A DNA stretch of 45,801 nt from Betaproteobacteria bacterium (GCA_025353085.1 JANXRI010000099.1:1-45801); one strand, 5' to 3'. Counted from the stretch's first letter, positions 30,158-45,194 are shown. Notes: generated by a model from the sequence alone, not told the origin. A program made the numbers and translations.

Positions 30158-30211
30158 ACCAGCGGCACTTATTTTGAGCGTTTCATAATTGATGATAGGT
30201 TGAACGCTCAT

Positions 30212-30246
30212 CCCTCACCCCGGGCCTCCCAAAGGGCGAGGGTGAG
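30212..30246. repeat. GC-rich REP-like palindromic unit
   Basis: CCCTCACCC-CGGGCCTCCCAAAGGGC-GAGGGTGAG. CTCACCC (30214-30220) pairs with GGGTGAG (30240-30246). Its composition and the CCTCCC..AAGGG core resemble the units at 45650-45766. Confidence 0.35.
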
Positions 30247-30251
30247 AATGG

Positions 30252-30277
30252 CACTAATTCGCTGTCGCGAATTAGTG
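30252..30277. terminator. Perfect 11-bp hairpin between the convergent fbpA and fbpB genes
   Basis: CACTAATTCGC-TGTC-GCGAATTAGTG. There is no U-tract on either strand, so a terminator function is only presumed. Confidence 0.35.
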
Positions 30278-30282
30278 AAAGA

Positions 30283-32001
30283 TCAATAACCAGCCGGAGC
30301 TTTTTTACGCCGTTCCACCGGCTTGCGGCCGACGCCGGTGCGGGCGATTCGCCGTGACAGCACAATGAGCGGCAACAGGCTTACCGCCACAATCGCCAGC
30401 GCCGAAGTAGACGCTTCGGCGAGCCGCTCATCAGCCGCGAGGTTGTAGGCCTGCACGGCGAGCGTGTCGAAATTGAACGGCCGCATGACAAATGTCGCGG
30501 GCAGTTCCTTCATCACGTCCACAAACACGAGCAACGCGGCGGTCAACAAGCTGCCGCGCATCAGCGGCCCGTGCACTTTAACGAGCGTGCCGAGAGGACC
30601 AACACCAAGTGACCGCGCCGCTTCATCCATGCTCGGCGTGATTTTGGTCAGTCCCGCTTCCACGGTCTGCAGCGCGACAGTGAGAAAGCGCACCAGGTAT
30701 GCATAGACCAGCGCGGCAATACTTCCCGTCAGCAGCAGCCCGGTGCTGATATCGAAGTTTGCGCGCATCCACGCGTCGATTGCATTGTCGAGACGCGCCA
30801 CGGGTACCAATATTCCGATCGCGATGACTGCGCCCGGAATCGCATAGCCAAGGCCCGCGATACGGTTGGCTGCCTGCACCGCAGGTCCCGGCCGCAGGCG
30901 CATCGCGTACGCCATGACCAGCGCGAGCACTACGGCAGCGACCGCAGTGACGCCGGCAAGCGTAAAACTATTGAGCGTCAACGTGACGAAGCGGGCGCCG
31001 AAATGCGCGTCGCCGTCGGTAAGCGCCATCCGCAACAGCAAAAGGGTCGGCAACAGGAAGCCGAGCAGCAACGGTATGCAACAAATGGTCGTCGCGCTCC
31101 ACGCGGCGATTCCGTGCAGTTGAAAACGCGCATTGCGCCGGCGGCCGGCGCCGTCGTAATACCGTGCGCGGCCGCGGCTCCAGCGTTCAAGCACGAGTAT
31201 CAGCACGACGAAACCGAGCAACAGTGCGCAGAGCTGCGCCGCGGCGACCCGATCGCCCATCGAAAGCCAGGCGCGGTATATCCCGGTCGTGAATGTCGGC
31301 ACCGCGAAATAGGACACCGTGCCGAAATCCGCGAGCGTCTCCATCAGCGCAAGCGTCGTGCCGGCGACGATCGCAGGCCGTGCCAGCGGCAATGCAATGC
31401 GAAAAAAACTTCCCCATGCGCCGTAGCCGAGCGTGCGCCCGACTTCGATGATGCCGATCGATTGCTCCAGAAACGCCGCGCGCACCACCAGATATACATA
31501 GGGATAAAGCACCAGTCCCAACATGACAATGGCGCCGCCGACGGAACGGATTTCCGGAAACCAGTAATCGCGTGCATGCCATCCCGCCACTACCCGCAAC
31601 CAGGTCTGAATCGGACCGGTGAATTGCAAGAGATCTGTATACGCGTAGGCCATGATGTAAGCGGGCATCGCCAGCGGCAGTATCAGTGTCCACTCAAACA
31701 TGCGCTGACCCGGGAAGCGGCATGTCGTCACAAGCCATGCCGTGGAAACGCCGCCGAACACGACCATGACGCTGACACCGGCCAGCAACCACAAGGTGTT
31801 CGCGATGTATTCCGGCAGTACCGTTGCAGCAAGATGCGACCACGCGCCCTGCCCCGGCAAAAAAATATTCGCGAGCACGACCACTACGGGTACCGCCAGC
31901 AGCGTCGCAATCAGCGTCGCGAGTATCGGTAATGCTCCGGCATGGCGTGAGCCGGGGCCGCCAGGCGCCGAACGTCGCCCCATCGCGATTGCTTCGTTCA
32001 T
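30283..32001 (-). CDS. fbpB: Fe(3+) ABC transporter permease (FbpB type, duplicated permease domains)
   Basis: 572 aa polytopic protein with two tandem MalFG-type permease halves, the length and architecture typical of FbpB/AfuB. Confidence 0.8.
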   Translation of the reverse strand: MNEAIAMGRRSAPGGPGSRHAGALPILATLIATLLAVPVVVVLANIFLPGQGAWSHLAATVLPEYIANTLWLLAGVSVMVVFGGVSTAWLVTTCRFPGQRMFEWTLILPLAMPAYIMAYAYTDLLQFTGPIQTWLRVVAGWHARDYWFPEIRSVGGAIVMLGLVLYPYVYLVVRAAFLEQSIGIIEVGRTLGYGAWGSFFRIALPLARPAIVAGTTLALMETLADFGTVSYFAVPTFTTGIYRAWLSMGDRVAAAQLCALLLGFVVLILVLERWSRGRARYYDGAGRRRNARFQLHGIAAWSATTICCIPLLLGFLLPTLLLLRMALTDGDAHFGARFVTLTLNSFTLAGVTAVAAVVLALVMAYAMRLRPGPAVQAANRIAGLGYAIPGAVIAIGILVPVARLDNAIDAWMRANFDISTGLLLTGSIAALVYAYLVRFLTVALQTVEAGLTKITPSMDEAARSLGVGPLGTLVKVHGPLMRGSLLTAALLVFVDVMKELPATFVMRPFNFDTLAVQAYNLAADERLAEASTSALAIVAVSLLPLIVLSRRIARTGVGRKPVERRKKAPAGY

Positions 32002-32112
32002 GCCGGATTTTTCATTTTGTTTTTGTCAATCTCGTCATGACGCTGCGCAGTGTAGCAAAGCCGTTCACGAGCGGCAAAGCGCGCCGAACGTGAGCCGCTA
32101 TAATGCCCGCAC

Positions 32113-33189
32113 ATGAATCCCGACAGTTCATCCCATGCGAGTGCTGGTCACAATGTAATTGCGCTCGATAACGTAACCCAGTTTTATGGGACCAACCGGG
32201 TGCTGGCCGGCATCTCATTCGCTTTAAAGCGCGGTGAAATCGGTTGCCTGCTCGGTGCCAGCGGTTGCGGCAAAACCACTGTGTTGCGATGTATTGCAGG
32301 TTTCGAAGCAGTCGCCGGCGGCGAAATCCGCTTGAACGACAAGTTGGTCAGTGCGCCCGCCTTCAGCGCGCCGACGGAGCAGCGACGCGTGGGCATGGTC
32401 TTTCAGGATTACGCGTTGTTTCCACATCTCGATGTCGCCGCCAATATCGCATTCGGCTTGCATGCCAGGGAGCGGGCCAAGCGTGAGCGCCGCGTCGCTG
32501 AACTGCTCGAGACCGTCGGCCTCGCCAATGCAGGGTCGAGGTTTCCGCATGAATTATCCGGCGGCCAGCAACAACGCGTCGCACTCGCGCGCGCACTGGC
32601 GCCGGAACCTGAACTGTTATTGCTAGACGAGCCTTTTTCGAATCTGGACGTTGAATTGCGCGAGCGATTGAGCCTTGAAGTTCGCGACATTCTGAAACAT
32701 CAGAACGCCACCGCGATTCTCGTCACACACGACCAGCATGAAGCTTTCAATATCGCCGATGTGGTCGGCATCCTCGCCAATGGCAAGCTCGAACAGTGGG
32801 ACACTCCGTACAATCTTTATCATGAGCCCGCCACGCGCTTCGTCGCCGATTTCATCGGTCAGGGGACGCTGCTTCCGGGCACGGTAGTCGGCGAACAGCG
32901 CGTAGAACTCGAGCTTGGGATATTTCAGGCGACCATTCCGGCCGACTGGCCACGCGGCGCGCCGGTCGATGTGTTGCTGCGGCCCGACGACATTCTGCAC
33001 GACGACGCGGCCGGTTTGCGCGCGGAGGTTTTGCATAAGGCGTTCCGCGGCGCCGAATTCCTCTATACGCTGCGGCTACCCACTGGCGGCCTTGTGATGT
33101 CGCTGGTGCCGAGTCATCACAACCATGCGATCGGTGAAAAAATCGGCATCCGCCTGGAGATCGATCACCTGGTCGCATTCCTCCGCTGA
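32113..33189 (+). CDS. fbpC: Fe(3+) ABC transporter ATP-binding protein (FbpC type)
   Basis: Walker A GASGCGKTT, signature LSGGQQQRVALARAL, Walker B LLLDEPFSNLD, C-terminal TOBE-like regulatory domain. Confidence 0.85.
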   Translation: MNPDSSSHASAGHNVIALDNVTQFYGTNRVLAGISFALKRGEIGCLLGASGCGKTTVLRCIAGFEAVAGGEIRLNDKLVSAPAFSAPTEQRRVGMVFQDYALFPHLDVAANIAFGLHARERAKRERRVAELLETVGLANAGSRFPHELSGGQQQRVALARALAPEPELLLLDEPFSNLDVELRERLSLEVRDILKHQNATAILVTHDQHEAFNIADVVGILANGKLEQWDTPYNLYHEPATRFVADFIGQGTLLPGTVVGEQRVELELGIFQATIPADWPRGAPVDVLLRPDDILHDDAAGLRAEVLHKAFRGAEFLYTLRLPTGGLVMSLVPSHHNHAIGEKIGIRLEIDHLVAFLR

Positions 33190-33219: not shown

Positions 33220-34254
33220 TCAGAAACGCTCGGCGGCGCGCAAGCCGCGCAATTCCTGCGCGAGCTCGTACACGGCCAACGCATAGTTGACGCTGCGGTT
33301 ATAGCGCGTGATGACGTAAAAATTGTTGAACCCCATCCAGTAGCGCGTGCCCGCCTCCGTTTCCGCCGAGAACACGGCGGCCTTCATATCGTCCGCAACA
33401 AGATAGCTGGGTGAAGCGCCCGTGCGCTTGATAGCGCCCACCGTCGTATGCGGAAGGATGCCGCGCTCGACCAACGCTCTGAATTCATCGCTGACCGGCT
33501 CGGCTGATTGCTCGATCGCCGCCAATACCGGCTCGCCCGCCTGCCAGCCGTAGCTCTTGTAGTAATTTGCGATGCTGCCGATCGCATCGCCATGGTTCCA
33601 TAAATCGCGTTTGCCGTCGCCGTCGAGATCCACCGCGTAACGGCGATAACTGCTCGGCAGAAACTGCGGGACGCCGAGCGCCCCGGCATAGGAACCTTTG
33701 ATTTGCAGAGGGTCGGTGTCCAGTTCCCGCGCGAGCAGCAGGAACTCGCCCAGTTCGCTGCGAAACCGCTCGGCGCGCGGCGGATAATTAAACGCGAGCG
33801 TGAAGAGCGCATTGAAGACATTGACTTTGCCGACGAGCCGGCCGTAAAACGACTCGATGCCGACTGTCGCAACCAGAAATTCCTCAGGTACGCCGGTCTC
33901 CGCGCTCGCCTGTGCAAGCAGCGCCGCATAGCGCCGCCAATACGCAATGCCACCGTCGATGCGCGCCGGGTTGACATGACTCGTGCGAAATACATGCCAT
34001 GGCAACGCGGTCGTCGGGCTGGCCATCGCCTTCAATATGCCGTGCTGGACGCGCGCCTGCGCAAACCAAATTTGCAATTGACGGCGGTCGAATTGGTGTT
34101 CGGACGAAAACTGGTCGATGAAAGCCGTTACTTCGGGATCGAGCGTGCCGGCCTGAACTTGACCGAAGGGCGGAATCAACGACACGCCAAGCGCGCACAC
34201 GATCACCGTGCATTGCAAAAACAATTTTAGATTATCAAACCACGTCGCTTGCAT
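33220..34254 (-). CDS. mltB: Lytic murein transglycosylase B family
   Basis: ATVGIESFYGR and GALGVPQFLPSSY motifs, N-terminal signal sequence. Confidence 0.85.
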   Translation of the reverse strand: MQATWFDNLKLFLQCTVIVCALGVSLIPPFGQVQAGTLDPEVTAFIDQFSSEHQFDRRQLQIWFAQARVQHGILKAMASPTTALPWHVFRTSHVNPARIDGGIAYWRRYAALLAQASAETGVPEEFLVATVGIESFYGRLVGKVNVFNALFTLAFNYPPRAERFRSELGEFLLLARELDTDPLQIKGSYAGALGVPQFLPSSYRRYAVDLDGDGKRDLWNHGDAIGSIANYYKSYGWQAGEPVLAAIEQSAEPVSDEFRALVERGILPHTTVGAIKRTGASPSYLVADDMKAAVFSAETEAGTRYWMGFNNFYVITRYNRSVNYALAVYELAQELRGLRAAERF

Positions 34255-34356: not shown

Positions 34357-35394
34357 CTATAGCGCTTTGAGCGAGTCGATGACTTTGCGATCGAACACGA
34401 GCCCCTCGCTACGCCGCCGCTCGCGTTCGCGAAACGCGCGCTCGGAAGGAATGCGGATTTCATCGACCCCGGGACGGCGCGGCGTGGCCTTGATCGATTC
34501 GACGAGGTCGGCCATCTGCTGCGGAAATTCACCGCCCGGGAGCATTAGGTGGGGATCGATGACGAAAAGTAGAAAGCCGTAATCCTGCACCTTGCCATCG
34601 GCGAGCGCCGCGCCCGCAAGCAGACCGAGCGCCTGTACGGCGAACGACAGCCCGGCGCCTTTATGTCCGCCGAACGGCACCCAGCCGCCTTTGAGCGCGG
34701 CAGTGGCGTCGCGCGTCGGGTTGCCTTCGGCGTCGAAAGCAATACCTTCCGGCAATTCCTGACCGATGTGCGCGAACAGCTGAATTTCGCCCACCATGAT
34801 CGACGCTGTGCCCATGTCGTAAATGACCGGGCCATTTACCGAGGGAAAGCCAAAGCACAGCGGATTGGTGCCGAACGCGGGCTTGGTGCCGCCGATCGGC
34901 AACACGCGCGGTTTGGCGCTCGCCGCATGGATGCCGACGAGCCCCTCCTTCGCGATCATCTCCACGAAGTAAGCGTTGCGTCCGCTGTAATAACTGTTGT
35001 ACACGCCCACTGAGGCGATGCCGCTCGTCCTGGCTTTTTTGATCGCGAGTCGGGTCGCATGATAGACGGACACGTAGCCGACGTTGTTGCCGCCATCGAT
35101 CAACGCCGACAGCGGCGTCTCGTGCACGATTTTGATGGGCCGCCTTTCCTTGCGCGTTTTTTCATCGCCGGCGATCGCCAATATGCGCGGCAGGCTCGCG
35201 AACCGGTAGCCGCACAACGCGTTGTCGATCAACTGGTCGGTAATGATCTGCGCGTCTTCCACCGAGTAGCCGATGCGGGAAAGCGCACCTTTGGCGAGTT
35301 CGGACGCGGCGGCAGGCGACATACGCACGGTGTCCGGCGTATCGGCGTCGAGCAATGCGCCCGGCACCGGTTTGAAACTGGCAACTTCAGTCAT
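34357..35394 (-). CDS. Ldh_2 family (type 2 malate/L-lactate dehydrogenase-like) oxidoreductase
   Basis: About 345 aa. The overall pattern (GYRFASLPR..., FGTNP, GHKGAGLS) fits the Ldh_2 family, which includes ureidoglycolate and sulfolactate dehydrogenases and cyclic imine-carboxylate reductases. The ATG at 35394 has a GGAAG SD 7 nt upstream. Confidence 0.75.
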   Translation of the reverse strand: MTEVASFKPVPGALLDADTPDTVRMSPAAASELAKGALSRIGYSVEDAQIITDQLIDNALCGYRFASLPRILAIAGDEKTRKERRPIKIVHETPLSALIDGGNNVGYVSVYHATRLAIKKARTSGIASVGVYNSYYSGRNAYFVEMIAKEGLVGIHAASAKPRVLPIGGTKPAFGTNPLCFGFPSVNGPVIYDMGTASIMVGEIQLFAHIGQELPEGIAFDAEGNPTRDATAALKGGWVPFGGHKGAGLSFAVQALGLLAGAALADGKVQDYGFLLFVIDPHLMLPGGEFPQQMADLVESIKATPRRPGVDEIRIPSERAFRERERRRSEGLVFDRKVIDSLKAL

Positions 35395-35531
35395 GCGCGA
35401 CTTCCAATGTTCATTGCGGGACGCGTGATTATAAACGCCGCGCATGGCGAGCTGCGATTCCGGCGCGTCGAATCGCTTATAATTCTTGATCCGCCAGCCG
35501 CACCAGCCGCATTAAAAAGAGAAATTCCAAC

Positions 35532-36008
35532 GTGCAGATTAACTTTACGCTCAACGGAGATCCGGTTGAAATACGACTGAAAAATGGCGACCGTCTGCTC
35601 GTGGACGTGTTGCGCGAAGACCTGCAACTCACCGGCACCAAACATGGCTGCGGCATCGGCGCCTGCGGCACGTGCACCGTGATCGTCGACAGTTTGCCCG
35701 TCGCTTCATGTCTCCAGCTCGCAGCGCTCGTCGACGGCTGCGACGTGCGCACGATCGAAGGCCTCGCCGGCAGCGCGTCGCTGCACGTCGTGCAGCAAGC
35801 GTTTATCAATCAGGCGGCGATGCAATGCGGGATCTGCACGCCTGGCCATGTGATGGCCGCGTGCGCGCTGCTCGAAAAAACGCCGGCGCCGACCGACGCG
35901 CAAATTCGCACCAGCGTCGAAAGCGTGTATTGCCGATGCACGGGCTATGTGCGCATCGAGGCGGCGTATCGCGAAGCCGTCGCGCTCGCCAACCCGGCGC
36001 GCCCATGA
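35532..36008 (+). CDS. (2Fe-2S)-binding small subunit of a xanthine-dehydrogenase-family molybdenum hydroxylase (CoxS-like)
   Basis: 158 aa. Plant-type cluster motif GCGIGACGTC, plus the second cluster motifs CGICTPG and CRCTGY. GTG start. Confidence 0.9.
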   Translation: MQINFTLNGDPVEIRLKNGDRLLVDVLREDLQLTGTKHGCGIGACGTCTVIVDSLPVASCLQLAALVDGCDVRTIEGLAGSASLHVVQQAFINQAAMQCGICTPGHVMAACALLEKTPAPTDAQIRTSVESVYCRCTGYVRIEAAYREAVALANPARP

Positions 36009-39000
36009 ATCAGCGCGACCGAAATGTTCGCCCGGCGGAAAGCCTGTTGGTGGTGGGCAAAGATGTGCCGCGCACCGACGCGATACCCAAGGTCACCGGC
36101 GCCGCGCAATACGTGGCCGATCTGCATATGCCCGGCATGCTGCATGCGGCGGTGCTGCGCAGTCCGCACCCGCATGCGCGCATTCTTGATATAGACACGA
36201 CCGCGGCCGCTGCGCTGCCCGGCGTCAAGGCCGTGATTACCGGCGCTGACACGGCGCGCAAAAAATGGGGTTGTTTCCGGCCCGACCTTTACCCGCTCGC
36301 GATCGACAAAGTGCGGTACGTCGGCGACGAAGTTGCCGCAGTGGCCGCGCGCGACCCGGAAACCGCGCGGGCGGCGGTCGACCTGATCAAAGTGGACTAT
36401 GAGATATTGCCGGCAGTGTTGTCGATGGATGCGGCCATCGAAGCCGGCGCGCCGCTCGTGCACGACGATACCGAAGGCAATATCGCTCATCATTTTTCGT
36501 TTGAGCGTGGCGACGTCGATGGCGGCTTCAAAGCCAGCGCTGTCATTGTCGAAGGAACCTGGCAAAGCGCGCGCCAGTGGCACACCTCGCTTGAAACGAT
36601 CGGTTGTGTTGCGCAGTGGACGGCCGACCGCGTTTCGCTGTGGTGCAATACTCAGACGCCCTTCCTGGCACGCGGCCGTTATGCGATCGCGCTTGGACTG
36701 CCGGAGAGCAAGGTGCGCGTCGTGCAAACGGAGGTCGGCGGCGGCTTCGGCGGCAAGTCCGGCGACGACAACGCATCGGTAATCTGCGCGCTGCTCGCGA
36801 AGAAATCCGGTAAGCCGGTCAAACTGATACACACACGCGAAGAAGAGTTTCTCGCGAGTCATCCGCGCATGCCGATGCGCTACCGGGTGCGCCTGGGTTT
36901 CTCGCGCGATGGCCATATCAAGGCCAAGGAAATCAAGATGCTCGCCGACAACGGCGCCTATACCGGCAAGTCGCAGGCGATTCTCGGCGCCGCGACCGTG
37001 CGACACGACGCGCTGTACAAATATCCTTGTGCGCGTGCCGATTCGACGCTGGTCTATACGAACCTCGTACCCACTGGGGCGTTTCGGGGTTTCGGCAATC
37101 CATCCGCCGATTGGGCCGTCGAGCAGTGCTGGGATCTCGCCGCGGAAAAACTCGGCATGGATGTCGTCGACCTGTTGCGCCTCAATGCCGTGGAGCCGGG
37201 TGACGTGTCCCCGCACAATCACAAGATCACAAGCTGCGAATTGAAGCAGTGCATCGATCTATCCGCGCACATGATTGGCTGGAAAAAGAAGCGCGCCTTG
37301 CGCACGCCCAATCGCGGACTCGGCATCGGCTGCAGCGTGCATGTCAACGGCCGGCGCAGTTTCGGCGACTGGGATGGCAGCGCTGCGATCGTGCGCATCA
37401 ACGACGACGGCCGCGCCACCATTATTACCGGCGAAGGCGAAATCGGTCAGGGCACGTTAACGGTGTTGCGCCAGATTGCCGCCGAAGAACTGGGTCTTCC
37501 GTACGAGGACGTGGATATCACGCGCCCCGACACCGACGTCCAACCTTACGCGCTCGGCGCGCTGGCGAGCCGCGTCACTTACGTCGCGGGCAACGCGGTG
37601 CAACGCGCCGCGGCGGCCGCGTTGAAACAACTGCTCGAGGCCGCGTCGGCGCAGTTCAAGCTCCCGCCCGATGAATTGACCGTGATCAACGGCGAAGTCG
37701 GCCCGCGGCGCGGGCGCGAAACCGATTTCAAGCCGGTTGCCGCAGTCGTGCGCGCGCACATCTATCAGCCGAACGGCCAGCCCATTATCGGGGTCGGAAA
37801 TTTCGATAATCCTTCAGAGTTTCCCGACCACAGCCGCTACGGCAATGAATCCGGCGCCTATAATTTTGCGGCGCAGACAGCGGAAGTCGAAGTCGATCGT
37901 GCGACCGGCAGAGTCACGGTGCTCGAAATCGCGTGCGCGGTCGATTGCGGCACCGTCATTCATCCGGCCGCCGCCGAAGGTCAGGTCACCGGAGCAGTCA
38001 CGCAGGGTCTGGGCCTCGCCGTAACCGAATACTTCGACTGGCATAACGGCGTGCCAACCGATCCCAATCTCAAGGATTATCCGCTGCCATCGGCGGCGAT
38101 GATGCCCAGGATACACGTTGCATTCGCCGATTCTTACGAGCCGTCAGGTCCATATGGCGCCAAAGGCCTCGGCGAAATCGGTCTCGATGCGGTACCCGCT
38201 GCGATTGCCAATGCGATTGCCGATGCGGTCGGCGTGCGCATCACCGAACTGCCGATCACCGCCGAAAAAATTTACCGCGCGCTGCATCCGGAACTGTTCG
38301 TTAACGAAGACAAGTCCGCCGCCGCTACGCCGAAAGGTTCGGTGTGGACGCGCCTGATGGCCGGCAAACCATCGGGCGCACGGCCGCCGCAAGCCGAATT
38401 CATATTCGCGAAAAGCGTTGACGAGGTTGTCGCCGCACTCGCCGCGGGGGATGCCGCCATCGTCGCGGGCGGCATGTCGCACGCCGTGCGCCGCGAGCGC
38501 ACCGGGTTCGCGCAGGCGAAGCGACTGATTGCGGTCGCGCGCGTGCCGGAACTCAAAGAATTGTCACTCGACGCACGCGGCGTATTGCGGGCGAACGCCG
38601 CCGTTTCCCTGCAAGCGCTGTATGACGACCTTAGCATTCGCAAAAACTGGCAGGCGCTCGACGAGGCGCTCGCGGCGGTCGGCATCGTGCGCTTGCGCCG
38701 CATGATCACAATCGGTGGCAGCCTGGGTCCGCTCATCGGCGGTTTCGACTTGCCGGTCGCGCTGCTCGCACTTAACTGTCGCGCAACGGTCGCCGGCCCT
38801 GGCGGACGACGCGTTGCGACATTGCCCGAACTCTTCGAAAAGCGCATCACCAAAGTCGAAATGGTCATCGGCATCGAGGTCGATCCGTTGCCGGCGCATA
38901 CCGGTTCCTCGTTCTTCAAATACATGGCGCGCAACGTGCTGGAGATTCCAACCGTCAATACCGCGGCGTCGGTAACCGTCGATGCCGACGGCATATGCCA

Positions 39001-39235
39001 ACACGCGCGCGTCGTGGTGGGCTCCGTCAGCTGGAAACCCGTCATTCTCGAACCGCGCGAACTGATTGGAAAAACATTCGACGACGCGCTCGTGCGCCGC
39101 TCCGTGCAAGCCGTGCGGACTCTCGCGCAACCGATGGCAGACGTGCGCGGCTCGGTTGCATACAAGCGCGAAATGGCGGTCGAGTTTGCAACGCGCGCAC
39201 TGCTGACCGCCTGGCAGCGCGCCCGGCAATCTTGA
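36005..39235 (+). CDS. Molybdopterin-binding large subunit (CoxL/XdhB-like) fused to a C-terminal FAD-binding medium-subunit domain (CoxM-like)
   Basis: The ATG at 36005 overlaps the small-subunit stop (ATGA). Residues ~1-765 carry the a/b-hammerhead and MoCo domains (KVTGAAQYVADL, EVGGGFGGKS, GPYGAKGLGE). After a ~30-aa linker, residues ~797-1076 carry FAD_binding_5 / CO-DH-flavoprotein-C features (FIFAKSVDEVV, VAGGMSH, TIGGSLG, VRGSVAYKREM). One uninterrupted frame in the ORF track. Confidence 0.85.
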   Translation: MNQRDRNVRPAESLLVVGKDVPRTDAIPKVTGAAQYVADLHMPGMLHAAVLRSPHPHARILDIDTTAAAALPGVKAVITGADTARKKWGCFRPDLYPLAIDKVRYVGDEVAAVAARDPETARAAVDLIKVDYEILPAVLSMDAAIEAGAPLVHDDTEGNIAHHFSFERGDVDGGFKASAVIVEGTWQSARQWHTSLETIGCVAQWTADRVSLWCNTQTPFLARGRYAIALGLPESKVRVVQTEVGGGFGGKSGDDNASVICALLAKKSGKPVKLIHTREEEFLASHPRMPMRYRVRLGFSRDGHIKAKEIKMLADNGAYTGKSQAILGAATVRHDALYKYPCARADSTLVYTNLVPTGAFRGFGNPSADWAVEQCWDLAAEKLGMDVVDLLRLNAVEPGDVSPHNHKITSCELKQCIDLSAHMIGWKKKRALRTPNRGLGIGCSVHVNGRRSFGDWDGSAAIVRINDDGRATIITGEGEIGQGTLTVLRQIAAEELGLPYEDVDITRPDTDVQPYALGALASRVTYVAGNAVQRAAAAALKQLLEAASAQFKLPPDELTVINGEVGPRRGRETDFKPVAAVVRAHIYQPNGQPIIGVGNFDNPSEFPDHSRYGNESGAYNFAAQTAEVEVDRATGRVTVLEIACAVDCGTVIHPAAAEGQVTGAVTQGLGLAVTEYFDWHNGVPTDPNLKDYPLPSAAMMPRIHVAFADSYEPSGPYGAKGLGEIGLDAVPAAIANAIADAVGVRITELPITAEKIYRALHPELFVNEDKSAAATPKGSVWTRLMAGKPSGARPPQAEFIFAKSVDEVVAALAAGDAAIVAGGMSHAVRRERTGFAQAKRLIAVARVPELKELSLDARGVLRANAAVSLQALYDDLSIRKNWQALDEALAAVGIVRLRRMITIGGSLGPLIGGFDLPVALLALNCRATVAGPGGRRVATLPELFEKRITKVEMVIGIEVDPLPAHTGSSFFKYMARNVLEIPTVNTAASVTVDADGICQHARVVVGSVSWKPVILEPRELIGKTFDDALVRRSVQAVRTLAQPMADVRGSVAYKREMAVEFATRALLTAWQRARQS

Positions 39236-39253
39236 CTACCCCGGAGTACCTGC

Positions 39254-40093
39254 ATGGCCGGCCCCACCGAAGGACAATTCACCACTGCCGACGGCTGTGT
39301 GATCGCATATACACTGCAAGCGCACGCCGACTCCAGCGCACCGCGCGTCGCGCTCATCCATTCGCTGGCACTCGATCGCAGCGTCTGGAATGGCGTCGTG
39401 GCTGAACTCGCGCCGCATGCTTCGATACTCGCTTACGACTGTCGAGGCCACGGCCGCAGTTCGCCAGTCACGATGCGCTACACCGCCGATTTATTTGCGG
39501 ACGATCTCGGGCAGTTGATGGACCACGTCGGTTGGCCCGCTGCTACGGTTGCCGGTTGCTCGATGGGTGGTTGCGTCGCACAAGCGTTCGCCGCCAATTA
39601 TGCAGAGCGCACTCAAGGCGCCTGCCTCATCGATACCACTGCATGGTACGGCGCCGATGCGCCGGCGAAGTGGCGCGAGCGCGCGGCGACCGCGATCGCA
39701 AAGGGCATGGGCGCGCTGATCGATTTCCAGGTCACGCGCTGGTTTACCGATGCGTTTCGCGCCACGCATGGCGAAACAATCGCGGCGCTGACCGCAGTAT
39801 TTCTCGCGAATGACGTACGCTGCTACGAGCGCACGTGCGAAATGCTCGGCACGGAAGACCTGCGACCGCTGCTCACATCGATCAAGGCGCCCACCGCTGT
39901 CGTCGTCGGCGCGGAAGACTACGCCACGCCCATCAGCATGGCCGAGGCGCTGCATCAGTCGATCCCGCAGTCGACGCTCACCGTCATCGCGCAGGGCCGG
40001 CATATCACGCCGGCGGAATGTCCGCGCGAAATTGCGCGCGAGTTGAAGAAGCTGCTCAACATTCAGCTATGCACTTTAGCGGGGACGCTGTGA
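39254..40093 (+). CDS. Alpha/beta-fold hydrolase, 3-oxoadipate enol-lactonase (PcaD)-like
   Basis: 279 aa. HSLALDRSVW N-terminal block, nucleophile elbow GCSMGG, C-terminal ...GRHITPAECP with the His. GGAG SD 8 nt upstream. Confidence 0.8.
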   Translation: MAGPTEGQFTTADGCVIAYTLQAHADSSAPRVALIHSLALDRSVWNGVVAELAPHASILAYDCRGHGRSSPVTMRYTADLFADDLGQLMDHVGWPAATVAGCSMGGCVAQAFAANYAERTQGACLIDTTAWYGADAPAKWRERAATAIAKGMGALIDFQVTRWFTDAFRATHGETIAALTAVFLANDVRCYERTCEMLGTEDLRPLLTSIKAPTAVVVGAEDYATPISMAEALHQSIPQSTLTVIAQGRHITPAECPREIARELKKLLNIQLCTLAGTL

Positions 40094-41052
40094 ACCCAAA
40101 CCGTTTCGTTGCGCTTCTCATTATTATTTGTGGAACGAACCGCGCGTCGGCGCAGCACTATCCGGCCGGCCCGGTGCGCGTCGTCGTGCCCTTCCCGGCC
40201 GGTGGTGGCGTCGACAGCGCCGGCCGCCTGCTCACGGCTAAGCTCACTGAAAGCTTCGGCAAATCGTTCGTCATCGAGAACCGCGGCGGCGCCAACGGCA
40301 ATATCGGCACTGAAGTCGTCGCCAGGTCCGCAAAAGACGGCTATACGCTGCTGTTTACCGGCGCGGGCTTCGTGACCAATCCAAGCCTGTATGCAAAAGT
40401 GCCGTACGACGCCGTCAAAGATTTCGAGCCCATCAGCCTGATGGCGCTGGGCCCCAATGTGCTGGTCGTGCATCCTTCGTTGCCGGTGAAAACCGTCAAA
40501 GACCTTATCGCGCTTGCCAAAGCGCAGCCCGGTGCGGTCGGCTTTGCGGGATCCGGCAGCGGCAGCACGCCGCATCTCGCCGGCGAACTATTCAACACAC
40601 TGGCCGGCGTGCACATGGTGCATATACCTTATCGCGGTTCCGGCCCGGCGATGATAGGGTTGCTCAGCGGCGAAACGCCGGTGATGTTCCTGCCGGCGAT
40701 CAATGCAGGGCCGCATGTTAAAGCGGGTCGTCTGCGCGCGATCGCTGTTACGAGTCGAGCGCGCCTCGCTTCGATGTCCGAGCTGCCGACAGTCGCCGAG
40801 GCGGGACTTAAGGGTTATGAATCGAGTCAGTGGTATGGCTTGCTCGCGCCGGCCGGTACTGCCGACGACATCCTGAATTCGTTGAGTTCGCAAGTCGTCA
40901 GGATCATGCAAACGCCGGACATGCAACAACGCATGCATAACGATGGCATAGTGCCGGTCGGCAATTCGCGCCAGCAGTTTGCGTCTTACATCAAAGCGGA
41001 GCTCGTCAAATGGGCCGATGTCATCAAGCGATCGGCCGCGCGCATCGATTGA
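40090..41052 (+). CDS. Bug family (TctC-like) substrate-binding protein
   Basis: The GTG at 40090 overlaps the hydrolase stop (GTGA). Signal peptide, then YPAGPVRVVVPFPAGGGVD. Confidence 0.85.
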   Translation: MNPNRFVALLIIICGTNRASAQHYPAGPVRVVVPFPAGGGVDSAGRLLTAKLTESFGKSFVIENRGGANGNIGTEVVARSAKDGYTLLFTGAGFVTNPSLYAKVPYDAVKDFEPISLMALGPNVLVVHPSLPVKTVKDLIALAKAQPGAVGFAGSGSGSTPHLAGELFNTLAGVHMVHIPYRGSGPAMIGLLSGETPVMFLPAINAGPHVKAGRLRAIAVTSRARLASMSELPTVAEAGLKGYESSQWYGLLAPAGTADDILNSLSSQVVRIMQTPDMQQRMHNDGIVPVGNSRQQFASYIKAELVKWADVIKRSAARID

Positions 41053-41181
41053 GCGGAATCGTAATTAGAGCGCAACATGAAAGCAGCGCAGGCGACTCGC
41101 CTGCATTCGTTGACACAGCAGGCGCGTCGCCTGCGCTACGCTTATTCTGAAATGCGCTTTCGATATATCAAGGCCTGCCGC

Positions 41182-42165
41182 ATGACCAAATTCCGCCTGC
41201 GTTCCATCATTGAGTTTTCGACTGGCGTTGGCGTGCTGATGCTGGCCCATGCCACTAGCGTGGCCGCACAGGCCTATCCGGCCAAGCCGCTGCGTATCAT
41301 CGTGCCGCAAAGTGCCGGCGGTTCGACTGATCTCGTCGCGCGCCCGCTCGCGAAGAAACTCGCCGACGCGCTCGGTCAATCCGTCGTCGTCGACAATAGG
41401 CCCGGCGCCGGCAGCGTGATCGGCACCGATCTCGTGGCCAAAGCCGGGCCCGACGGTTACACGCTATTGGCAGTCGCTGCGTCGGTCACGATGAGCCCGA
41501 GTCTTTATAAACTCCCGTTCGATCCAGTTCGTGACCTCGCCGCAATCAGCCAGCTCACCTCACTTCCCAATCTGCTTGTCATCCATCCGTCTCTGCCGGT
41601 TAACGCCGTCGCGGAATTCATCGCGTTCGCAAAAGCGCGGCCCAACCAGCTTAACTTCGGCTCGAGCGGTGTCGCCACCGGCACGCATTTATCGATGGAG
41701 TTGCTCAAGTACATGACCGGTATCAGACTGGTGCACGTGCCATATAAGGGGGGCTCGTTGAACGTCAACGCGCTGATCGCCGGCGAAACACAGGTGAATT
41801 TTTCGACCATTTCGACCGCGTTGCCGCACGTCAAAACGGGGCGCTTGCGCGCGCTCGCGGTGTCTACGGCGAAGCGCTCAGCGGCTGCGCCCGACGTGCC
41901 GACCATCGCCGAGAGCGGCGTCAAGGATTACGATTACTCGTCGTGGATAGGCTTGCTCGCACCGGCCAAAACACCGGCAGCCATCATTGCGCGACTCAAT
42001 GCCGAAGCGGTGAAAGCGATCCGCACGCCCGATATGAAAGCGATACTCGCGGTTGAAGCGTCGGAGCCGGTCGGCACTTCACCGGCGGAATTTGGCGCGC
42101 TCATGCAGATGGAAGTCGCGCGCTGGCTGAAGGTGGTCAAGGCGGCGGGAATTAAAGGGGATTGA
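41182..42165 (+). CDS. Bug family (TctC-like) substrate-binding protein
   Basis: Signal peptide (GVGVLMLAHATSVAAQA), then YPAKPLRIIVPQSAGGSTD. Start at the ATG at 41182. Confidence 0.85.
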   Translation: MTKFRLRSIIEFSTGVGVLMLAHATSVAAQAYPAKPLRIIVPQSAGGSTDLVARPLAKKLADALGQSVVVDNRPGAGSVIGTDLVAKAGPDGYTLLAVAASVTMSPSLYKLPFDPVRDLAAISQLTSLPNLLVIHPSLPVNAVAEFIAFAKARPNQLNFGSSGVATGTHLSMELLKYMTGIRLVHVPYKGGSLNVNALIAGETQVNFSTISTALPHVKTGRLRALAVSTAKRSAAAPDVPTIAESGVKDYDYSSWIGLLAPAKTPAAIIARLNAEAVKAIRTPDMKAILAVEASEPVGTSPAEFGALMQMEVARWLKVVKAAGIKGD

Positions 42166-42207
42166 GGATTGAAATGCCGCTATCCCCCGATCCTCAATCC
42201 TCGCGCC

Positions 42208-43845
42208 TCAATCCTGCCCTTCAGGCCTGAACTTTGTTTCCGGTTTGACCCCTTTACGTTGCAGCTTTTCGGAGACCCGGCCATTGTCGAGATAATCGCC
42301 CGCCACCGCGCGCCTGGCAGCATCCTCCCACTGCGGCGACCAGTCGCCTTGCGGCTCGCCAAACCACGGGGATTGCGGACGCAGCTTCGGCAGACCCAGT
42401 TCGTCCCATAATTGGTGCGCGCGTTCCATGTATTCGCGGCGCGGCAGTGCAAGCGGCGGCAATTCTTCCTTCATCGTCGCGTCCATCAGGAGCGTCGCAT
42501 CTGCGCGTTCAGCCTCGTGCTCGCGCTCCGGGCCGTGGCCCGGGCTGCGGTACGGCAGCACTTGCAGATCGCTTGCCGGATTCATGCGAAACGCGATTGC
42601 CCACAACAGAGCATCGGAATTATCGGCATCGATATCTTCGTTCACCGCCACGCAGATTTTCCCGCAGTCGGCCCTGAATGAAGCGGCGCCGTAAAGCGCT
42701 CGCCACACTTCGGTGCGCGGGGTGTCTTTCTCGAGGGTGATTATGCAGATGCGGCGCAATGCCGTCATGCGCTCGTGCAGCGTGACGCGTTTGACCCCGC
42801 GTATGCCGAGCGTATTTCTCAGGTGAGAGAGAAACATCGGTTCGTACGCAACGCGTTTCATCGCGCTCGATTCGCTCGGCGTGACCTGGCTTAAGTACGA
42901 AACGACGATCGCATGCCGGCGGTGCGTAATTGCCGTCACGCGCATCGGAATGTTGAATTCTTCGAGTGCGACGTGGCCATGCGATTCGCCGAACGGGCCC
43001 TCCGGCTCGACGCTCTCGGTATCGAGATAGCCTTCGATTACAATCTCCGCTTCGGCCGGCACCATCAAATCGACCGTGCGTGCGCGCACGATGTTGATCG
43101 GCGCGCCCGCGAGCCCGCCGGCAACGCCGATCTCATCGACATCGATCGGCAGCTTCTGCGGCGCGACAAACGCCACGCATGGCGGGCCGCCGAGCACGAT
43201 CGCGCACGGCATCGTCTTATCGCCGCGTTGCTGATGCTTGACGTAATGCCGGTAGCCGCCCGCTCCGCCCACGCGGGTCGCCATGCGCACGACCAGCCGG
43301 TCTGACGCCTTGAGCGCCGCGCGGTAGGTGCCATGGTTTTGCACACCCGTATCCGGATCGCGCGTGATGACGTTCGTCGCGGTCAGCGTCGGTGCGCTGT
43401 CGAATCCCGGCGTCGAAATCGGAATGGGCAGACTGTCGAGTCCCTGTCCGAACCCCAGCAAAGCCTCGCCTTCGATTACGACCTCCTGACAAACCGCGGC
43501 GGCGACTATACGCGGCGCAATCGGGTTTGCAATCGCATGGTCCCACCGCGCCTGCACTTCGTCTGCCTTGCAGCGCATGCCGAGACAATAAATTTCGCGA
43601 TTGCCCGCGAGCGCGCCAACGACCACCGGAAATGCATACTTGCGGCCGCGGCCGTCGATGACGTTCGTAAACAGGAAGGCCTTGCGCTCATGCTCCTCGA
43701 TGCCGCCGACAAACTGCCAGCGCATGAGCGGATGAAGCTGCGCGTCCTTGTCGACGGCGCGGTCGATGGTCAGCAGCAATCCCCGCTGCTTCAGACCCTC
43801 GAGATGCTCATGCAGGTCGGGATAACCCGGTGTTGCTTTGGCCAT
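42208..43845 (-). CDS. UbiD-family (prenylated-FMN-dependent) reversible decarboxylase with extended C-terminus
   Basis: 545 aa from the ATG at 43845. UbiD signature EGPFGESHGH and family-wide layout. The Trp-rich and charged C-terminal tail (LWDELGLPKLRPQSPWFGEPQGDWSPQWEDAA...KPETKFRPEGQD) extends beyond the ~490-aa canonical size. Confidence 0.85.
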   Translation of the reverse strand: MAKATPGYPDLHEHLEGLKQRGLLLTIDRAVDKDAQLHPLMRWQFVGGIEEHERKAFLFTNVIDGRGRKYAFPVVVGALAGNREIYCLGMRCKADEVQARWDHAIANPIAPRIVAAAVCQEVVIEGEALLGFGQGLDSLPIPISTPGFDSAPTLTATNVITRDPDTGVQNHGTYRAALKASDRLVVRMATRVGGAGGYRHYVKHQQRGDKTMPCAIVLGGPPCVAFVAPQKLPIDVDEIGVAGGLAGAPINIVRARTVDLMVPAEAEIVIEGYLDTESVEPEGPFGESHGHVALEEFNIPMRVTAITHRRHAIVVSYLSQVTPSESSAMKRVAYEPMFLSHLRNTLGIRGVKRVTLHERMTALRRICIITLEKDTPRTEVWRALYGAASFRADCGKICVAVNEDIDADNSDALLWAIAFRMNPASDLQVLPYRSPGHGPEREHEAERADATLLMDATMKEELPPLALPRREYMERAHQLWDELGLPKLRPQSPWFGEPQGDWSPQWEDAARRAVAGDYLDNGRVSEKLQRKGVKPETKFRPEGQD

Positions 43846-44117
43846 TGGTGTTCCCGATAAAAAAGGAGAAAGCACGCCATGCTGTCTGTCGTGCGCGCGC
43901 TATTTGTGAGGGGCGCGATTGTTTTGTTTGCCGAGAGCAGTCTAACGCGAACCGGAGCGCATCTCAAATGAGGCGTCGATCCGCAAGCACGCCGTGACCT
44001 GCGGCCGGCAGCCACGCCGTTAAACCCGCGCGATGCCATGCGCCAGGAGAAGCGAATCGTTGACGGGCGCGGCGGGCGCAGGGCTCGCGCTCCGGAGACG
44101 CGCGGGCGATGCAACGC

Positions 44118-45194
44118 TCACTTACGCCGAAACGGCGCCGCCAGCGGTTCGCCGATAAAGATTCCCTGCCCCGGCATTTGCACGCTTTTCCAGTACGCTT
44201 CGATCAACGTTTCGCCCTGCAGGTAATACGCGATCGCGATCGCCGGATGCGGAAATTTCTGCGCGATGTTGCACGGCTCGACGACAGTGCCATAACTGCC
44301 GGTTGCGCCGGCCTCCAGCCAGCGCACCGCACTCATCTGCCCGCTGTCGATCGATAACATGCCGCCGCCTGAAGTCAGGTGATCGGCGATGGCGCCCGGC
44401 AGAAAGTGCAGCGTTTCAAGTGACTCCACCCATTGCCGGCCGATAAAGTAAAACAACACGTCCTTCGCGTCCTTGAGCGACTCCTGCCCGAGAGTTCGCA
44501 CTTGCAGCCGCCCCTTCAGCATCTTTTCGACCAGCGGATAGCTCCCGGCGCGCACGCCGCGCGATCTGTCCCAGGCCGACACCAGATAAGCTGTGCCTGC
44601 GGGTTTGGTTCCATCGGATGCGACGCCACGCGCCACGACTTCAAGACTCTCGAAGCCCAGATTAGCCAATGCGAGCCGCTGTTGCCACGTCGGCACCATG
44701 GTGACCAGCGTGTCATTGTGAAATCGCCGCAGGTATCCGAGTACTGCTCTGCGCAACCAACCGACGCCATAGTGCCGGCTGTAGGCGTGGAAGTTTGTGC
44801 GAAAGTCCGAGGTCACCGGCAATTTCAATTTTTTTGCTGCCTTCAGGGCTGACCACCCGAGCGGCCCCTCGGTGACAATGTGGACCAGATCCGGCGGCTG
44901 GCGCGACCATAGTTCAAGCAGCGAGGCTTGCGCGGGCAAACCAAATTTCAACCCGGGATAGCGCGGCAGCGGCAATCCGCGCACCAACACGTCTTCGGGC
45001 GCACACCGTCCCGCGCGATTTCCATCGCAGTCCTGGCGCGGCCGCACTAATTGAATAGTGTGACCGCGCGCACGCAGTCCGCCGACAAAGTGCGAAACAC
45101 TCAAAGAAACGCCGTTAATTTCGGGAGGGTACGTCTCCGTAACAAAGGCGATTCGCAGTGATTTTCCATAAGGCATTGTTACTTGCTCGACCAT
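44118..45194 (-). CDS. Chimeric ORF: GT4 glycosyltransferase N-terminal domain fused to a TIGR03790-like C-terminal domain (possibly a fusion pseudogene)
   Basis: Residues ~1-192 (RIAFVTETYPPEINGVS..., HIVTEGPLGW, ...VVARGV) look like Glyco_trans_4. The Glycos_transf_1 catalytic half is absent. Residues ~200-358 (HLTSGGG, WLEAGATGSYGTVVEPC, FIGEPLAAPF) resemble an unrelated uncharacterised family. Confidence 0.6.
   Translation of the reverse strand: MVEQVTMPYGKSLRIAFVTETYPPEINGVSLSVSHFVGGLRARGHTIQLVRPRQDCDGNRAGRCAPEDVLVRGLPLPRYPGLKFGLPAQASLLELWSRQPPDLVHIVTEGPLGWSALKAAKKLKLPVTSDFRTNFHAYSRHYGVGWLRRAVLGYLRRFHNDTLVTMVPTWQQRLALANLGFESLEVVARGVASDGTKPAGTAYLVSAWDRSRGVRAGSYPLVEKMLKGRLQVRTLGQESLKDAKDVLFYFIGRQWVESLETLHFLPGAIADHLTSGGGMLSIDSGQMSAVRWLEAGATGSYGTVVEPCNIAQKFPHPAIAIAYYLQGETLIEAYWKSVQMPGQGIFIGEPLAAPFRRK

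Follow-up and report, generated by a model that had tools for sequence, protein, structure and literature searches.

The question raised by this locus is which compound is metabolized by a gene cluster that combines a molybdenum hydroxylase with a UbiD-family decarboxylase. The cluster lies in a 45,801-nt stretch of DNA from Betaproteobacteria bacterium (GCA_025353085.1, JANXRI010000099.1:1-45801), the whole of which is referred to here as the window. It comprises the genes for the [2Fe-2S] and fused molybdenum-FAD (Mo-FAD) subunits of the hydroxylase, an alpha/beta hydrolase, two Bug/TctC receptors, UbiD and an Ldh_2-family dehydrogenase (Table 1). A preliminary description had read it as an unassigned catabolic cluster for a (hetero)aromatic carboxylate. 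This was essentially right, with the corrections that the core consists of five genes, that the Ldh_2 gene is lineage-specific, that the hmf furan pathway is not the nearest relative and that a heterocyclic substrate is hypothetical. Based on its gene content and conservation, the cluster probably encodes a 'funnel' module acting on an aromatic or heteroaromatic carboxylic acid, providing uptake, hydroxylation with water, decarboxylation and hydrolytic ring opening.

Table 1. Positions of the cluster features, and of ubiX and its neighbor, in the window (numbering from the first nucleotide).
Feature	Position	Strand	Evidence
Ldh_2-family dehydrogenase	34357-35445	-	PF02615, 271 bits; divergent
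[2Fe-2S] small subunit, XDH-family molybdenum hydroxylase	35532-36008	+	Pfam Fer2, Fer2_2
Fused Mo-FAD subunit, 1076 aa	36005-39235	+	Ald_Xan_dh_C, MoCoBD_1, MoCoBD_2, FAD_binding_5, CO_deh_flav_C
PcaD-like alpha/beta hydrolase	39254-40093	+	Abhydrolase_1; NCBIfam PcaD 201 bits, cut-off 256
Bug/TctC receptor 1 (Bug1)	40090-41052	+	PF03401, 240 bits
20-nt inverted repeat, 95% complementary, 13-nt loop	41085-41137		Repeat search; Bug1-Bug2 spacer
Bug/TctC receptor 2 (Bug2)	41182-42165	+	PF03401, 270 bits
11-nt perfect inverted repeat, Bug2/UbiD gap	42159-42200		Terminator-like hairpin without T-run
UbiD-family decarboxylase (ORF)	42208-43875	-	Pfam UbiD_N, UbiD (Rift-related), UbiD_C
UbiX flavin prenyltransferase	3663-4265	+	NCBIfam UbiX, 251 bits, above cut-off
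TIGR02444/DUF2390 protein	4270-4782	+	TIGR02444, 108 bits, above cut-off; directly 3' of ubiX

Family assignments are based on an open reading frame (ORF) table with translations and on Pfam and NCBIfam scans of the window ORFs; the Pfam scans covered selected ORFs of at least ~170 aa. All seven genes were found at the positions and in the families previously reported, with Ldh_2 divergent and UbiD convergent. The close coupling of the five plus-strand genes was confirmed at base level: the stop codon of the 2Fe-2S gene overlaps the Mo-FAD start in ATGA (36005-36008, read base by base), an 18-nt gap with GGAG ahead of the ATG precedes the hydrolase, hydrolase and Bug1 overlap in GTGA (40090-40093), and 129 nt separate Bug1 from Bug2. 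Bug2 and UbiD converge across a 42-nt gap. The cluster end at 43875 holds for the extent of the UbiD ORF, but alignment with ten homologs sets the start of the protein (545 aa) at 43845. The Ldh_2 gene may start at its second ATG (35397), because Ldh_2 homologs are ~345 aa long. The 20-nt inverted repeat in the Bug1-Bug2 spacer may fold into a hairpin within the operon and determine how strongly one receptor is expressed relative to the other; scans for consensus promoters and terminators gave no signal above shuffled expectation.

Conservation was analyzed from both ends of the cluster. In a UbiD-anchored scan of one genome per GTDB species, genes were called and clustered in the best 80 loci, which were queried by tblastn with the window proteins; the reciprocal scan, anchored on Mo-FAD in metagenomes, comprised 80 loci. 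L numbers denote loci of related genomes and metagenomes, and W the window itself. All ten distinct betaproteobacterial loci with a UbiD 74-89% identical to that of the window, and at least 8 kb of sequence beyond the gene, contain an orthologous fused Mo-FAD gene (72-84% identical), convergent and within 10 kb. Conversely, UbiD is present within 10 kb in nine of the 13 Mo-FAD orthologs with at least 71% identity and at least 8 kb downstream. The orthologs thus do co-occur in related genomes, and because their co-localization is kept across genomes, the comparison indicates that the cluster is a real conserved unit in soil, freshwater and marine bacteria, and not a chance neighborhood. Its invariant part consists of the 2Fe-2S gene, the fused Mo-FAD gene, one to several Bug genes (two in the window) and UbiD. 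As a seven-gene unit the cluster therefore stands for this core only: the hydrolase, which follows Mo-FAD in most loci, is dispensable, and Ldh_2 is restricted to the closest relatives. Ldh_2 borders the core as a divergent gene only in W, L001, L090, L142, L151 and L160, where Mo-FAD is at least 84% identical. In L093/L094 it is found ~6 kb off, at the end of an operon of ABC transporter, thiolase-like and OB-fold genes, and a TetR gene lies directly upstream of the 2Fe-2S gene; L173 has a 53% identical Ldh_2 copy near UbiD. From this distribution Ldh_2 appears to be a lineage-specific accessory.

Around the core, the betaproteobacterial loci differ in their additional enzymes. In a first type the order is 2Fe-2S, Mo-FAD, hydrolase, Amidohydro_2, Bug, thiamine pyrophosphate (TPP) enzyme, Bug, (universal stress protein, Usp) and UbiD (L012, L013, L015, L106, L111, L112, L114 and L120, with the flank ending before UbiD in L111 and L120). 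The best solved and NCBIfam relatives of the TPP enzyme are benzoylformate decarboxylases (BFD), and the Amidohydro_2 protein resembles 2-amino-3-carboxymuconate-6-semialdehyde decarboxylase (ACMSD; 171 bits to the human enzyme). A gentisate type has the order 2Fe-2S, Mo-FAD, (hydrolase), Bug, Bug, class II aldolase-type protein, gentisate 1,2-dioxygenase, Sir2-like protein and UbiD. It is complete in L006 and L172, where the dioxygenase (453 bits to TIGR02272, above cut-off) is co-transcribed with Mo-FAD, and partial in L004 (UbiD beside Rieske genes, with Mo-FAD ~10 kb off) and L102/103 (no hydrolase or aldolase); L004, L006 and L172 also encode a benzoate/anthranilate-type Rieske oxygenase. 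In a third, CoA type (L007, L011), genes for a major facilitator superfamily transporter, an NDP-forming acyl-CoA synthetase, an acyl-CoA dehydrogenase and a short-chain dehydrogenase/reductase are located directly upstream of UbiD. The closest metagenomic relative, L090, is fully syntenic with the window and carries an extra FMN-dependent 2-hydroxyacid dehydrogenase (FMN_dh) between the Bug genes and UbiD; such a dehydrogenase is also present in L177, and a PanE-like reductase in L108 and L171. Together with Ldh_2 and the BFD-like TPP enzyme, these predicted proteins form a recurring 2-oxo/2-hydroxy-acid theme around the core.

A gene for a Sir2/CobB-type NAD-dependent deacylase adjoins UbiD in L004, L006, L031, L102/103, L108, L171 and L172; its position is filled by a YCII-domain gene in L001, L090 and L091 and by the Usp gene in TPP-type clusters.

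The UbiD clade is also found in Alphaproteobacteria (55-67% identity), among Xanthobacteraceae, Rhizobiaceae, Rhodobacterales and SAR116-type bacteria. In these Alpha-type loci UbiD stands beside a three-subunit, CoxLMS-type enzyme of the xanthine dehydrogenase (XDH) family, which shares 28-33% identity with Mo-FAD; a second gene for a Mo subunit is often present. Common additions are a hydrolase 44-55% identical to that of the window, UbiX, a TIGR02444/DUF2390 protein, a PcaC-like protein of the carboxymuconolactone decarboxylase family (encoded immediately ahead of UbiD; 136 bits, cut-off 156), a BFD-like TPP enzyme and a GntR regulator. The transporters are of the tripartite tricarboxylate (TTT, TctABC), NMT1-type ABC or LctP-like type, and the marine L017/L018 hold an apparent tripartite ATP-independent periplasmic (TRAP) system, judged by gene sizes and order only. 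This company of the UbiD clade agrees with the carboxylate substrate proposed earlier. Cultured carriers include Sinorhizobium fredii NGR234 (pNGR234b, ~183-215 kb), Neorhizobium petrolearium, Phyllobacterium endophyticum, Oceanicola granulosus HTCC2516, Devosia enhydra (two TPP genes and an FMN_dh gene) and the betaproteobacterium P. caribensis MBA4, whose locus (UbiX, UbiD, hydrolase, Mo enzyme) gives no clue to the substrate. We rate it as the strongest evidence that the association of UbiD, hydroxylase, hydrolase and 2-oxoacid enzyme outlasts the replacement of one enzyme family by another, which therefore points to a single pathway.

The same comparison bears on the explanation that the Mo-FAD/hydrolase/Bug operon, the convergent UbiD and, certainly, Ldh_2 have separate functions and are merely co-inherited. 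UbiD is indeed on the opposite strand, the position of Ldh_2 varies, UbiD occurs in L171 and L173 without a nearby Mo-FAD gene, and four of the 13 Mo-FAD loci have no UbiD within 10 kb. However, UbiD is paired with an XDH-family enzyme in Beta- and Alphaproteobacteria alike although the Mo type and gene order have changed, which is hard to explain without a functional link, and in Alpha-type clusters UbiD, the second Mo subunit gene, GntR and UbiX are adjacent and co-oriented. We therefore consider independent functions improbable.

The decarboxylase has the N, Rift-related and C domains of the UbiD family, and its motifs QNHGTYR, DE and EPEGPFGE align with HmfF and E. coli UbiD. The corresponding conserved residues (N-x-G-x-Y-R, D-E, E-x-E-G-P-F-G-E) have roles in binding of metal and prenylated FMN (prFMN) and in acid-base catalysis, after Fdc1 and UbiD. 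The protein further has a conserved C-terminal extension of ~100 aa. Its best solved relative is the 2,5-furandicarboxylate (FDCA) decarboxylase HmfF (123 bits, ~30% identity to PtHmfF), followed by 7pda (an unnamed UbiD) and E. coli UbiD; AroY, VdcC, HudA, Pcd and InD are more distant. Close relatives number in the thousands in public data, the best 120 being 79-90% identical and mostly from uncultured Betaproteobacteria, and relatives occur in at least 590 species-level genomes; identity within the clade is 74-90% within Betaproteobacteria and 55-67% between classes. The database names of these relatives are generic only ('UbiD family decarboxylase', 'vdcc protein'). By these comparisons the window UbiD represents a new, uncharacterized UbiD clade. 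Matches of low identity on Paracoccus and Ruegeria plasmids were set aside as ubiquinone-type UbiD/UbiX beside UbiU/V/T-like (U32 peptidase, SCP2) genes. An Ensifer adhaerens plasmid UbiD was likewise assigned to the ubiquinone type, by inference from three unannotated ORFs of matching sizes upstream.

A ubiX gene is present ~30 kb upstream of the cluster, in a housekeeping context near pyrD. Its product, 54% identical to UbiX of the Alpha-type clusters, is the probable source of prFMN for UbiD. Of the 23 loci with both UbiX and TIGR02444, 19 have them side by side. The pairing was noted in the window, L039, L085, L170, L175 and L179, and thus in a housekeeping context (window), in Alpha-type catabolic clusters and near another UbiD/UbiX cluster on pSymA of Sinorhizobium meliloti. 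As the two genes adjoin across such varied contexts, this suggests a role of the TIGR02444/DUF2390 protein tied to UbiX or prFMN.

In the hydroxylase, both four-Cys motifs are legible in the translated small subunit, whose orthologs in relatives are 71-88% identical and adjoin Mo-FAD. The large subunit contains Ald_Xan_dh_C, two MoCoBD domains and FAD_binding_5/CO_deh_flav_C, which together with the two-[2Fe-2S] subunit place the enzyme in the XDH/CODH family. Its five Pfam domains are ordered with the Mo-binding part before the FAD-binding part, and the fusion is kept in all orthologs seen at full length; this predicted architecture is unusual. A GGGFGGK loop and a C-terminal catalytic Glu in G-x-G-E are active-site motifs of the XDH family. 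The Mo-FAD subunit has both GGGFGGK and AKGLGE, and QTEVGGGFGGKS and GAKGLGE align with 4-hydroxybenzoyl-CoA reductase (4-HBCR) and HmfA. In like-for-like BLASTP, which was used to rank relatives of the Mo domain, the best characterized-type match found was the large (L) subunit of the S. meliloti lumazine cluster (39%, 492 bits), ahead of the 4-HBCR alpha subunit (36%, 407 bits), HmfA (31%) and the Alpha-type Mo subunits (31%).

The best solved relative of the Mo domain (407-425 bits), 4-HBCR (HcrCAB, 1rm6), is likewise an XDH-family enzyme with a separate 2Fe-2S subunit. Only two Cys are present in the FAD part of Mo-FAD, and therefore the Cys-rich [4Fe-4S] insert of the 4-HBCR beta subunit (HcrB) is absent; the window context, in addition, is of aerobic type. 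With 624 bits against an equivalog cut-off of 995, scores for every NCBIfam 4-HBCR equivalog well short of the respective cut-off, and no CoA ligase in the cluster, assignment to 4-HBCR was rejected.

The lumazine-type match leads to lumazine/pterin cluster I of Cupriavidus sp. LA-1, which consists of LuDH, a DHLI Amidohydro_2 pair, UbiX and the UbiD-type decarboxylase XCDC (Doi et al. 2025; PMC12391406). Its route proceeds from lumazine via 6,7-dihydroxylumazine and xanthine-8-carboxylate to xanthine, the last step being catalyzed by the UbiD-type decarboxylase (PMC12391406). A syntenic locus on S. meliloti pSymB (L178; CP140883.1 1561036-1582079) was used as sequence proxy. It comprises two amidohydrolases, UbiD, UbiX, an NCS2 nucleobase transporter, a GTPase, XDH L/S/M and GntR. 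One more gene of the amidohydrolase family is a possible deaminase, by analogy with the cytosine-deaminase-like gene reported for Rhizobiales (PMC12391406). Because L178 reproduces the gene content of cluster I, S. meliloti is predicted to degrade lumazine or pterins. A second locus of this species, L179 on pSymA (CP140947.1 1361003-1382043), contains HutC, UbiD, UbiX, an Asp/Glu-racemase-family gene and FAD oxidoreductases, with a TPP enzyme, an aldehyde dehydrogenase and a TIGR02444 gene near its UbiD/UbiX cluster.

Cluster I and the window cluster are both proteobacterial catabolic clusters that combine an XDH-family hydroxylase, using water-derived oxygen, with a prFMN/UbiD-family decarboxylase. 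This shared logic, known from Burkholderiales (PMC12391406), and the 39% identity of the Mo domain might speak for a divergent cluster I in which an alpha/beta hydrolase has replaced the amidohydrolase-type isomerase. We regard this as very improbable. The window UbiD is only 26% identical to the proxy UbiD and belongs to another clade, so that it was rejected as an ortholog of the xanthine-8-carboxylate decarboxylase. Neither cluster nor window contains the DHLI pair, the LA1_0143-type GTPase, the pterin deaminase or the nucleobase transporter, the window gave no Amidohydro_2 match, and paired Amidohydro_2 genes are never found in the orthologous clusters. Unlike cluster I, the window has fused Mo and FAD subunits and, instead, Bug receptors and a PcaD-like hydrolase; the receptors argue for a carboxylate rather than lumazine.

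The hydrolase has a GCSMGG nucleophile elbow, and its best PDB match is the 3-oxoadipate enol-lactonase 2xua. It is a putative lactone/lactam or ester hydrolase of the Ser-Asp-His type. Its score is below the PcaD cut-off (Table 1) and no pca genes are present in the window. Cofactor-less dioxygenases of the HOD/QDO type, considered as an alternative identity, were not among the PDB matches at E <= 1e-10. The likeness to PcaD/PcaC, and that to MdlB/MdlC, is at family level only, with scores below the equivalog cut-offs and the remaining pca and mdl genes absent: the mandelate-like element consists of the BFD-like TPP enzyme and the FMN-dependent or other 2-hydroxyacid dehydrogenases of the variants, and the PcaC-like one belongs to the Alpha-type clusters.

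Enol-lactonase chemistry brings in the hmf furan pathway, which had been named as the closest precedent. Its canonical reference here is C. necator NH9 pENH92 (L174), with LysR, hmfF, hmfG, a TctC gene, a GMC oxidoreductase and, farther on, hmfABC. Like the window cluster it has a TctC receptor (HmfH') in addition to the Mo hydroxylase and the UbiD decarboxylase, HmfF is the nearest solved UbiD, and lactone-forming chemistry would suit a PcaD-like hydrolase. It differs in having separate hmfA, hmfB and hmfC genes, and the window cluster has no HmfD CoA ligase, HmfE, GMC oxidoreductase or adjacent UbiX. HmfA and HmfF are each 31% identical to their window counterparts, and a survey of hmf clusters accepted HmfA homologs at 45% identity or more (PMC8091172). 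Membership was therefore rejected, in agreement with the earlier failure to match the cluster to the nic, pic or hmf gene sets. As a closest precedent, hmf had to give way to lumazine cluster I for the Mo subunit, not for UbiD. The dip cluster for dipicolinate was excluded as well: dipicolinate degradation survives deletion of molybdenum cofactor (Moco) genes (dip paper) and is based on the monooxygenase DipD and on DipR, and the window cluster has no monooxygenase or GntR gene. Overall, the predicted gene set matches no characterized pathway. No paper describing it was found in the literature on UbiD combined with Mo, TTT, gentisate or isophthalate, and the quinolinate literature held nothing useful for the cluster.

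A CoA-independent pathway for a furan or pyrone carboxylate could nevertheless be built from these enzymes. In the furan version, UbiD would convert 2,5-furandicarboxylate to 2-furoate, the Mo enzyme would hydroxylate C5 to give a butenolide, the enol-lactone of 2-oxoglutarate, and the PcaD-like enol-lactonase would release 2-oxoglutarate; in Alphaproteobacteria, consecutive action of a PcaC-like decarboxylase and the lactonase would lead to succinate semialdehyde instead. The pyrone version would start from 2-pyrone-4,6-dicarboxylate and end at aconitate. Such a minimal gene set would reach central metabolism, and a dispensable hydrolase suits a labile lactone or anhydride. The closest solved UbiD being the FDCA decarboxylase HmfF, the hydrolase being nearest to a furanone hydrolase, the PcaC-like protein upstream of UbiD in Alpha-type clusters, the proximity of Alpha-type Mo subunits to HmfA (35% identity) and the TctC receptor likewise held by the canonical hmf cluster are all consistent with it. 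However, HmfF and HmfA are distant, the latter below the survey threshold, and the window Mo domain resembles HmfA less closely than it does the lumazine-type and 4-HBCR-type subunits. Moreover, the TPP enzyme, the ACMSD-like decarboxylase, the gentisate dioxygenase and the 2-hydroxyacid dehydrogenases are left without a role, because 2-oxoglutarate requires no further dedicated enzymes. A furan or pyrone carboxylate is in our view an unlikely substrate.

The same variant enzymes modify the earlier proposal of an N- or O-heterocyclic substrate. It is still one option, but the gentisate dioxygenase, Rieske oxygenase, BFD-like and ACMSD-like proteins point to benzenoid or anthranilate-type products. 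One way to accommodate them is a pathway for an electron-poor benzene di- or tricarboxylate (isophthalate/phthalate type or polycarboxylates), in which isophthalate would be hydroxylated with water to 4-hydroxyisophthalate by the Mo enzyme and UbiD would remove the carboxyl group para to the hydroxyl, the resulting salicylate/3-hydroxybenzoate entering the gentisate pathway. The best solved Mo-domain relative is in fact a benzene-ring enzyme, and the variants hold gentisate 1,2-dioxygenase, the benzoate-type Rieske oxygenase, PhtC-like class II aldolase-type and Amidohydro_2 decarboxylases, and up to five TctC genes with a fused TctA-TctB gene (L172, L175). In L021/L023, where no Mo enzyme is encoded at the locus, UbiD lies beside a two-component phenol-hydroxylase-type monooxygenase, an extradiol dioxygenase, a gentisate/5-aminosalicylate-dioxygenase-like protein and a fumarylacetoacetate hydrolase (FAH)-family hydrolase. 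Bug2, which is 42% identical to Bug1, has the terephthalate-binding protein 8hka as its best PDB match; Bug1 matches Bug27, BugE and the terephthalate-binding TBP with similar scores. Nearly equal scores across unrelated ligands weaken this point, and prediction of a Bug ligand from the PDB matches was abandoned for that reason. The hydrolase, the TPP enzyme and Ldh_2 would have no obvious role, and the gentisate genes occur in a minority of variants and may belong to mosaic aromatic islands. We know of no XDH-family enzyme that hydroxylates a free benzenecarboxylate, and consider a benzene polycarboxylate quite unlikely.

Returning to the funnel module, the events could be arranged as follows. 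The Bug receptors would capture the carboxylate and deliver it to a TctAB importer whose genes lie elsewhere. UbiD, with prFMN made by UbiX, would strip the carboxyl group from the ring, and the Mo enzyme would hydroxylate an electron-poor ring carbon with oxygen from water, passing electrons via 2Fe-2S and FAD to NAD+ or a quinone; the two reactions could occur in either order. Tautomerization of the hydroxylated ring would give a lactam or lactone, and its opening by the PcaD-like hydrolase would yield a 2-oxo acid. The best PDB matches of Ldh_2 are type-2 malate dehydrogenase and sulfolactate dehydrogenase, with every NCBIfam equivalog score far below its cut-off, and by family it is predicted to be an NAD(P)-dependent 2-hydroxyacid/2-oxoacid (or cyclic imine) dehydrogenase. 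In the window lineage it might reduce or oxidize this 2-oxo acid, and in other lineages the 2-oxo or 2-hydroxy acid could be decarboxylated by the BFD-like TPP enzyme or processed by the FMN_dh or PanE-like proteins.

As a tentative instance of this scheme we propose indole-3-carboxylate, which UbiD would convert to indole, the Mo enzyme to oxindole and isatin, and the hydrolase to isatinate, an arylglyoxylate, from which anthranilate and then gentisate or 3-hydroxyanthranilate would be formed. Indole-type acids are ranked slightly ahead of the furan/pyrone and benzene polycarboxylate classes, because such a route accounts for the BFD-like enzyme, the 2-hydroxyacid dehydrogenases, the Rieske oxygenase, the gentisate dioxygenase and the ACMSD-like protein, and because the Mo domain is nearest to an N-heterocycle hydroxylase of the lumazine dehydrogenase type. 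Routes from indole via oxindole and isatin to anthranilate, and from indole via isatin and anthranilate to gentisate, have been described from metabolites, and their genes are not known (PMC6221969). A UbiD-family indole-3-carboxylate decarboxylase, AnInD, does exist (PDB 7p9q). That the module as a whole is an oxygen-independent indolic route, with UbiD, hydroxylation of C2 (and C3) by the fused Mo-FAD enzyme and a hydrolase leading via isatinate and anthranilate to gentisate, is a still more tentative proposal.

Several observations weigh against this interpretation. The window UbiD is only remotely related to every characterized UbiD, AnInD included (59 bits). The PcaC/PcaD-like proteins suit furanone chemistry better than lactam chemistry, and the isatin hydrolases known so far fall into another fold family. 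The hydrolase is absent in L002, L007, L011, L096, L102-L105 and L108, and L171 and L173 have a betaproteobacterial UbiD with no Mo-FAD gene within 10 kb. No TPP enzyme or ring-cleavage enzyme was found in the window, where Ldh_2 may be a mere neighbor. As had been stated for the cluster, there is no regulator or TctA/TctB gene: PhaR, which is unrelated, is the only DNA-binding regulator among the scanned window ORFs (at least ~170 aa, shorter ones unscanned), and neither the Pfam scans of the chosen ORFs nor tblastn with a TctA query detected TctA/TctB in the window.

The pairing of a Mo hydroxylase with a UbiD decarboxylase is already known; the fused Mo-FAD subunit and the widespread, uncharacterized UbiD clade set this cluster apart. 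The clade is carried by SAR116-type marine bacteria, Xanthobacteraceae, rhizobia and many uncultured Burkholderiales, and its partnership with XDH-family, BFD-like TPP and PcaD-like enzymes points to an unrecognized route by which a common natural aromatic acid would be degraded largely without oxygenases. Identification of the substrate would add a UbiD specificity, useful for biocatalysis by reversible carboxylation, and would characterize a new fused Mo-FAD hydroxylase architecture. It could also supply the genes still missing for indole breakdown via oxindole/isatin, or bring to light a furan route that does not depend on CoA. If the indolic reading were true, it would provide genes for pathways known solely from metabolites since the 1980s. 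More generally, an abundant natural aromatic acid would then have a pathway that is new and widespread among soil, freshwater and marine Proteobacteria. Since several carriers are cultured and genetically tractable, the question of the substrate is directly testable.

The remainder of the window is core chromosome, with pyrD, lolCDE, recJ, prfB, lysS, bamD, phaCBR and an iron ABC transporter; a 342-aa ORF at 8355-9383 had no match in the Pfam scan. The cluster is flanked by genes with unrelated housekeeping functions, upstream MltB (33220-34254) and downstream an EPS-type glycosyltransferase gene, the GT4/TIGR03790 ORF (44118-45194, minus strand). The latter is chimeric, with an N-terminal GT4 domain (residues 26-191) and a TIGR03790-family C-terminal part (residues 185-338), and the alignment with its counterpart in L090 spans only 198 residues, which suggests a deletion or fusion at the cluster edge. 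On the other side, an iron-type ABC transporter (substrate-binding protein, fused permease and ATPase; 29069-33189) separates MltB from a patatin gene. These two genes abut directly in the syntenic relatives L001 and L090, and the comparison indicates a local insertion or deletion beside the cluster. A third Bug/TctC receptor gene (1324-2373), 37% identical to Bug2, is overlapped by a gene for an NADH:flavin oxidoreductase of the Old Yellow Enzyme family with a C-terminal Cys-rich motif (135-2373 for the pair, minus strand), beside pyrD; the two form another orphan Bug-linked unit. Finally, the prfB (RF-2) ORF at 11286-12290 (plus strand) has a TTG start and encodes only 334 aa, as would fit the usual programmed +1 frameshift upstream.

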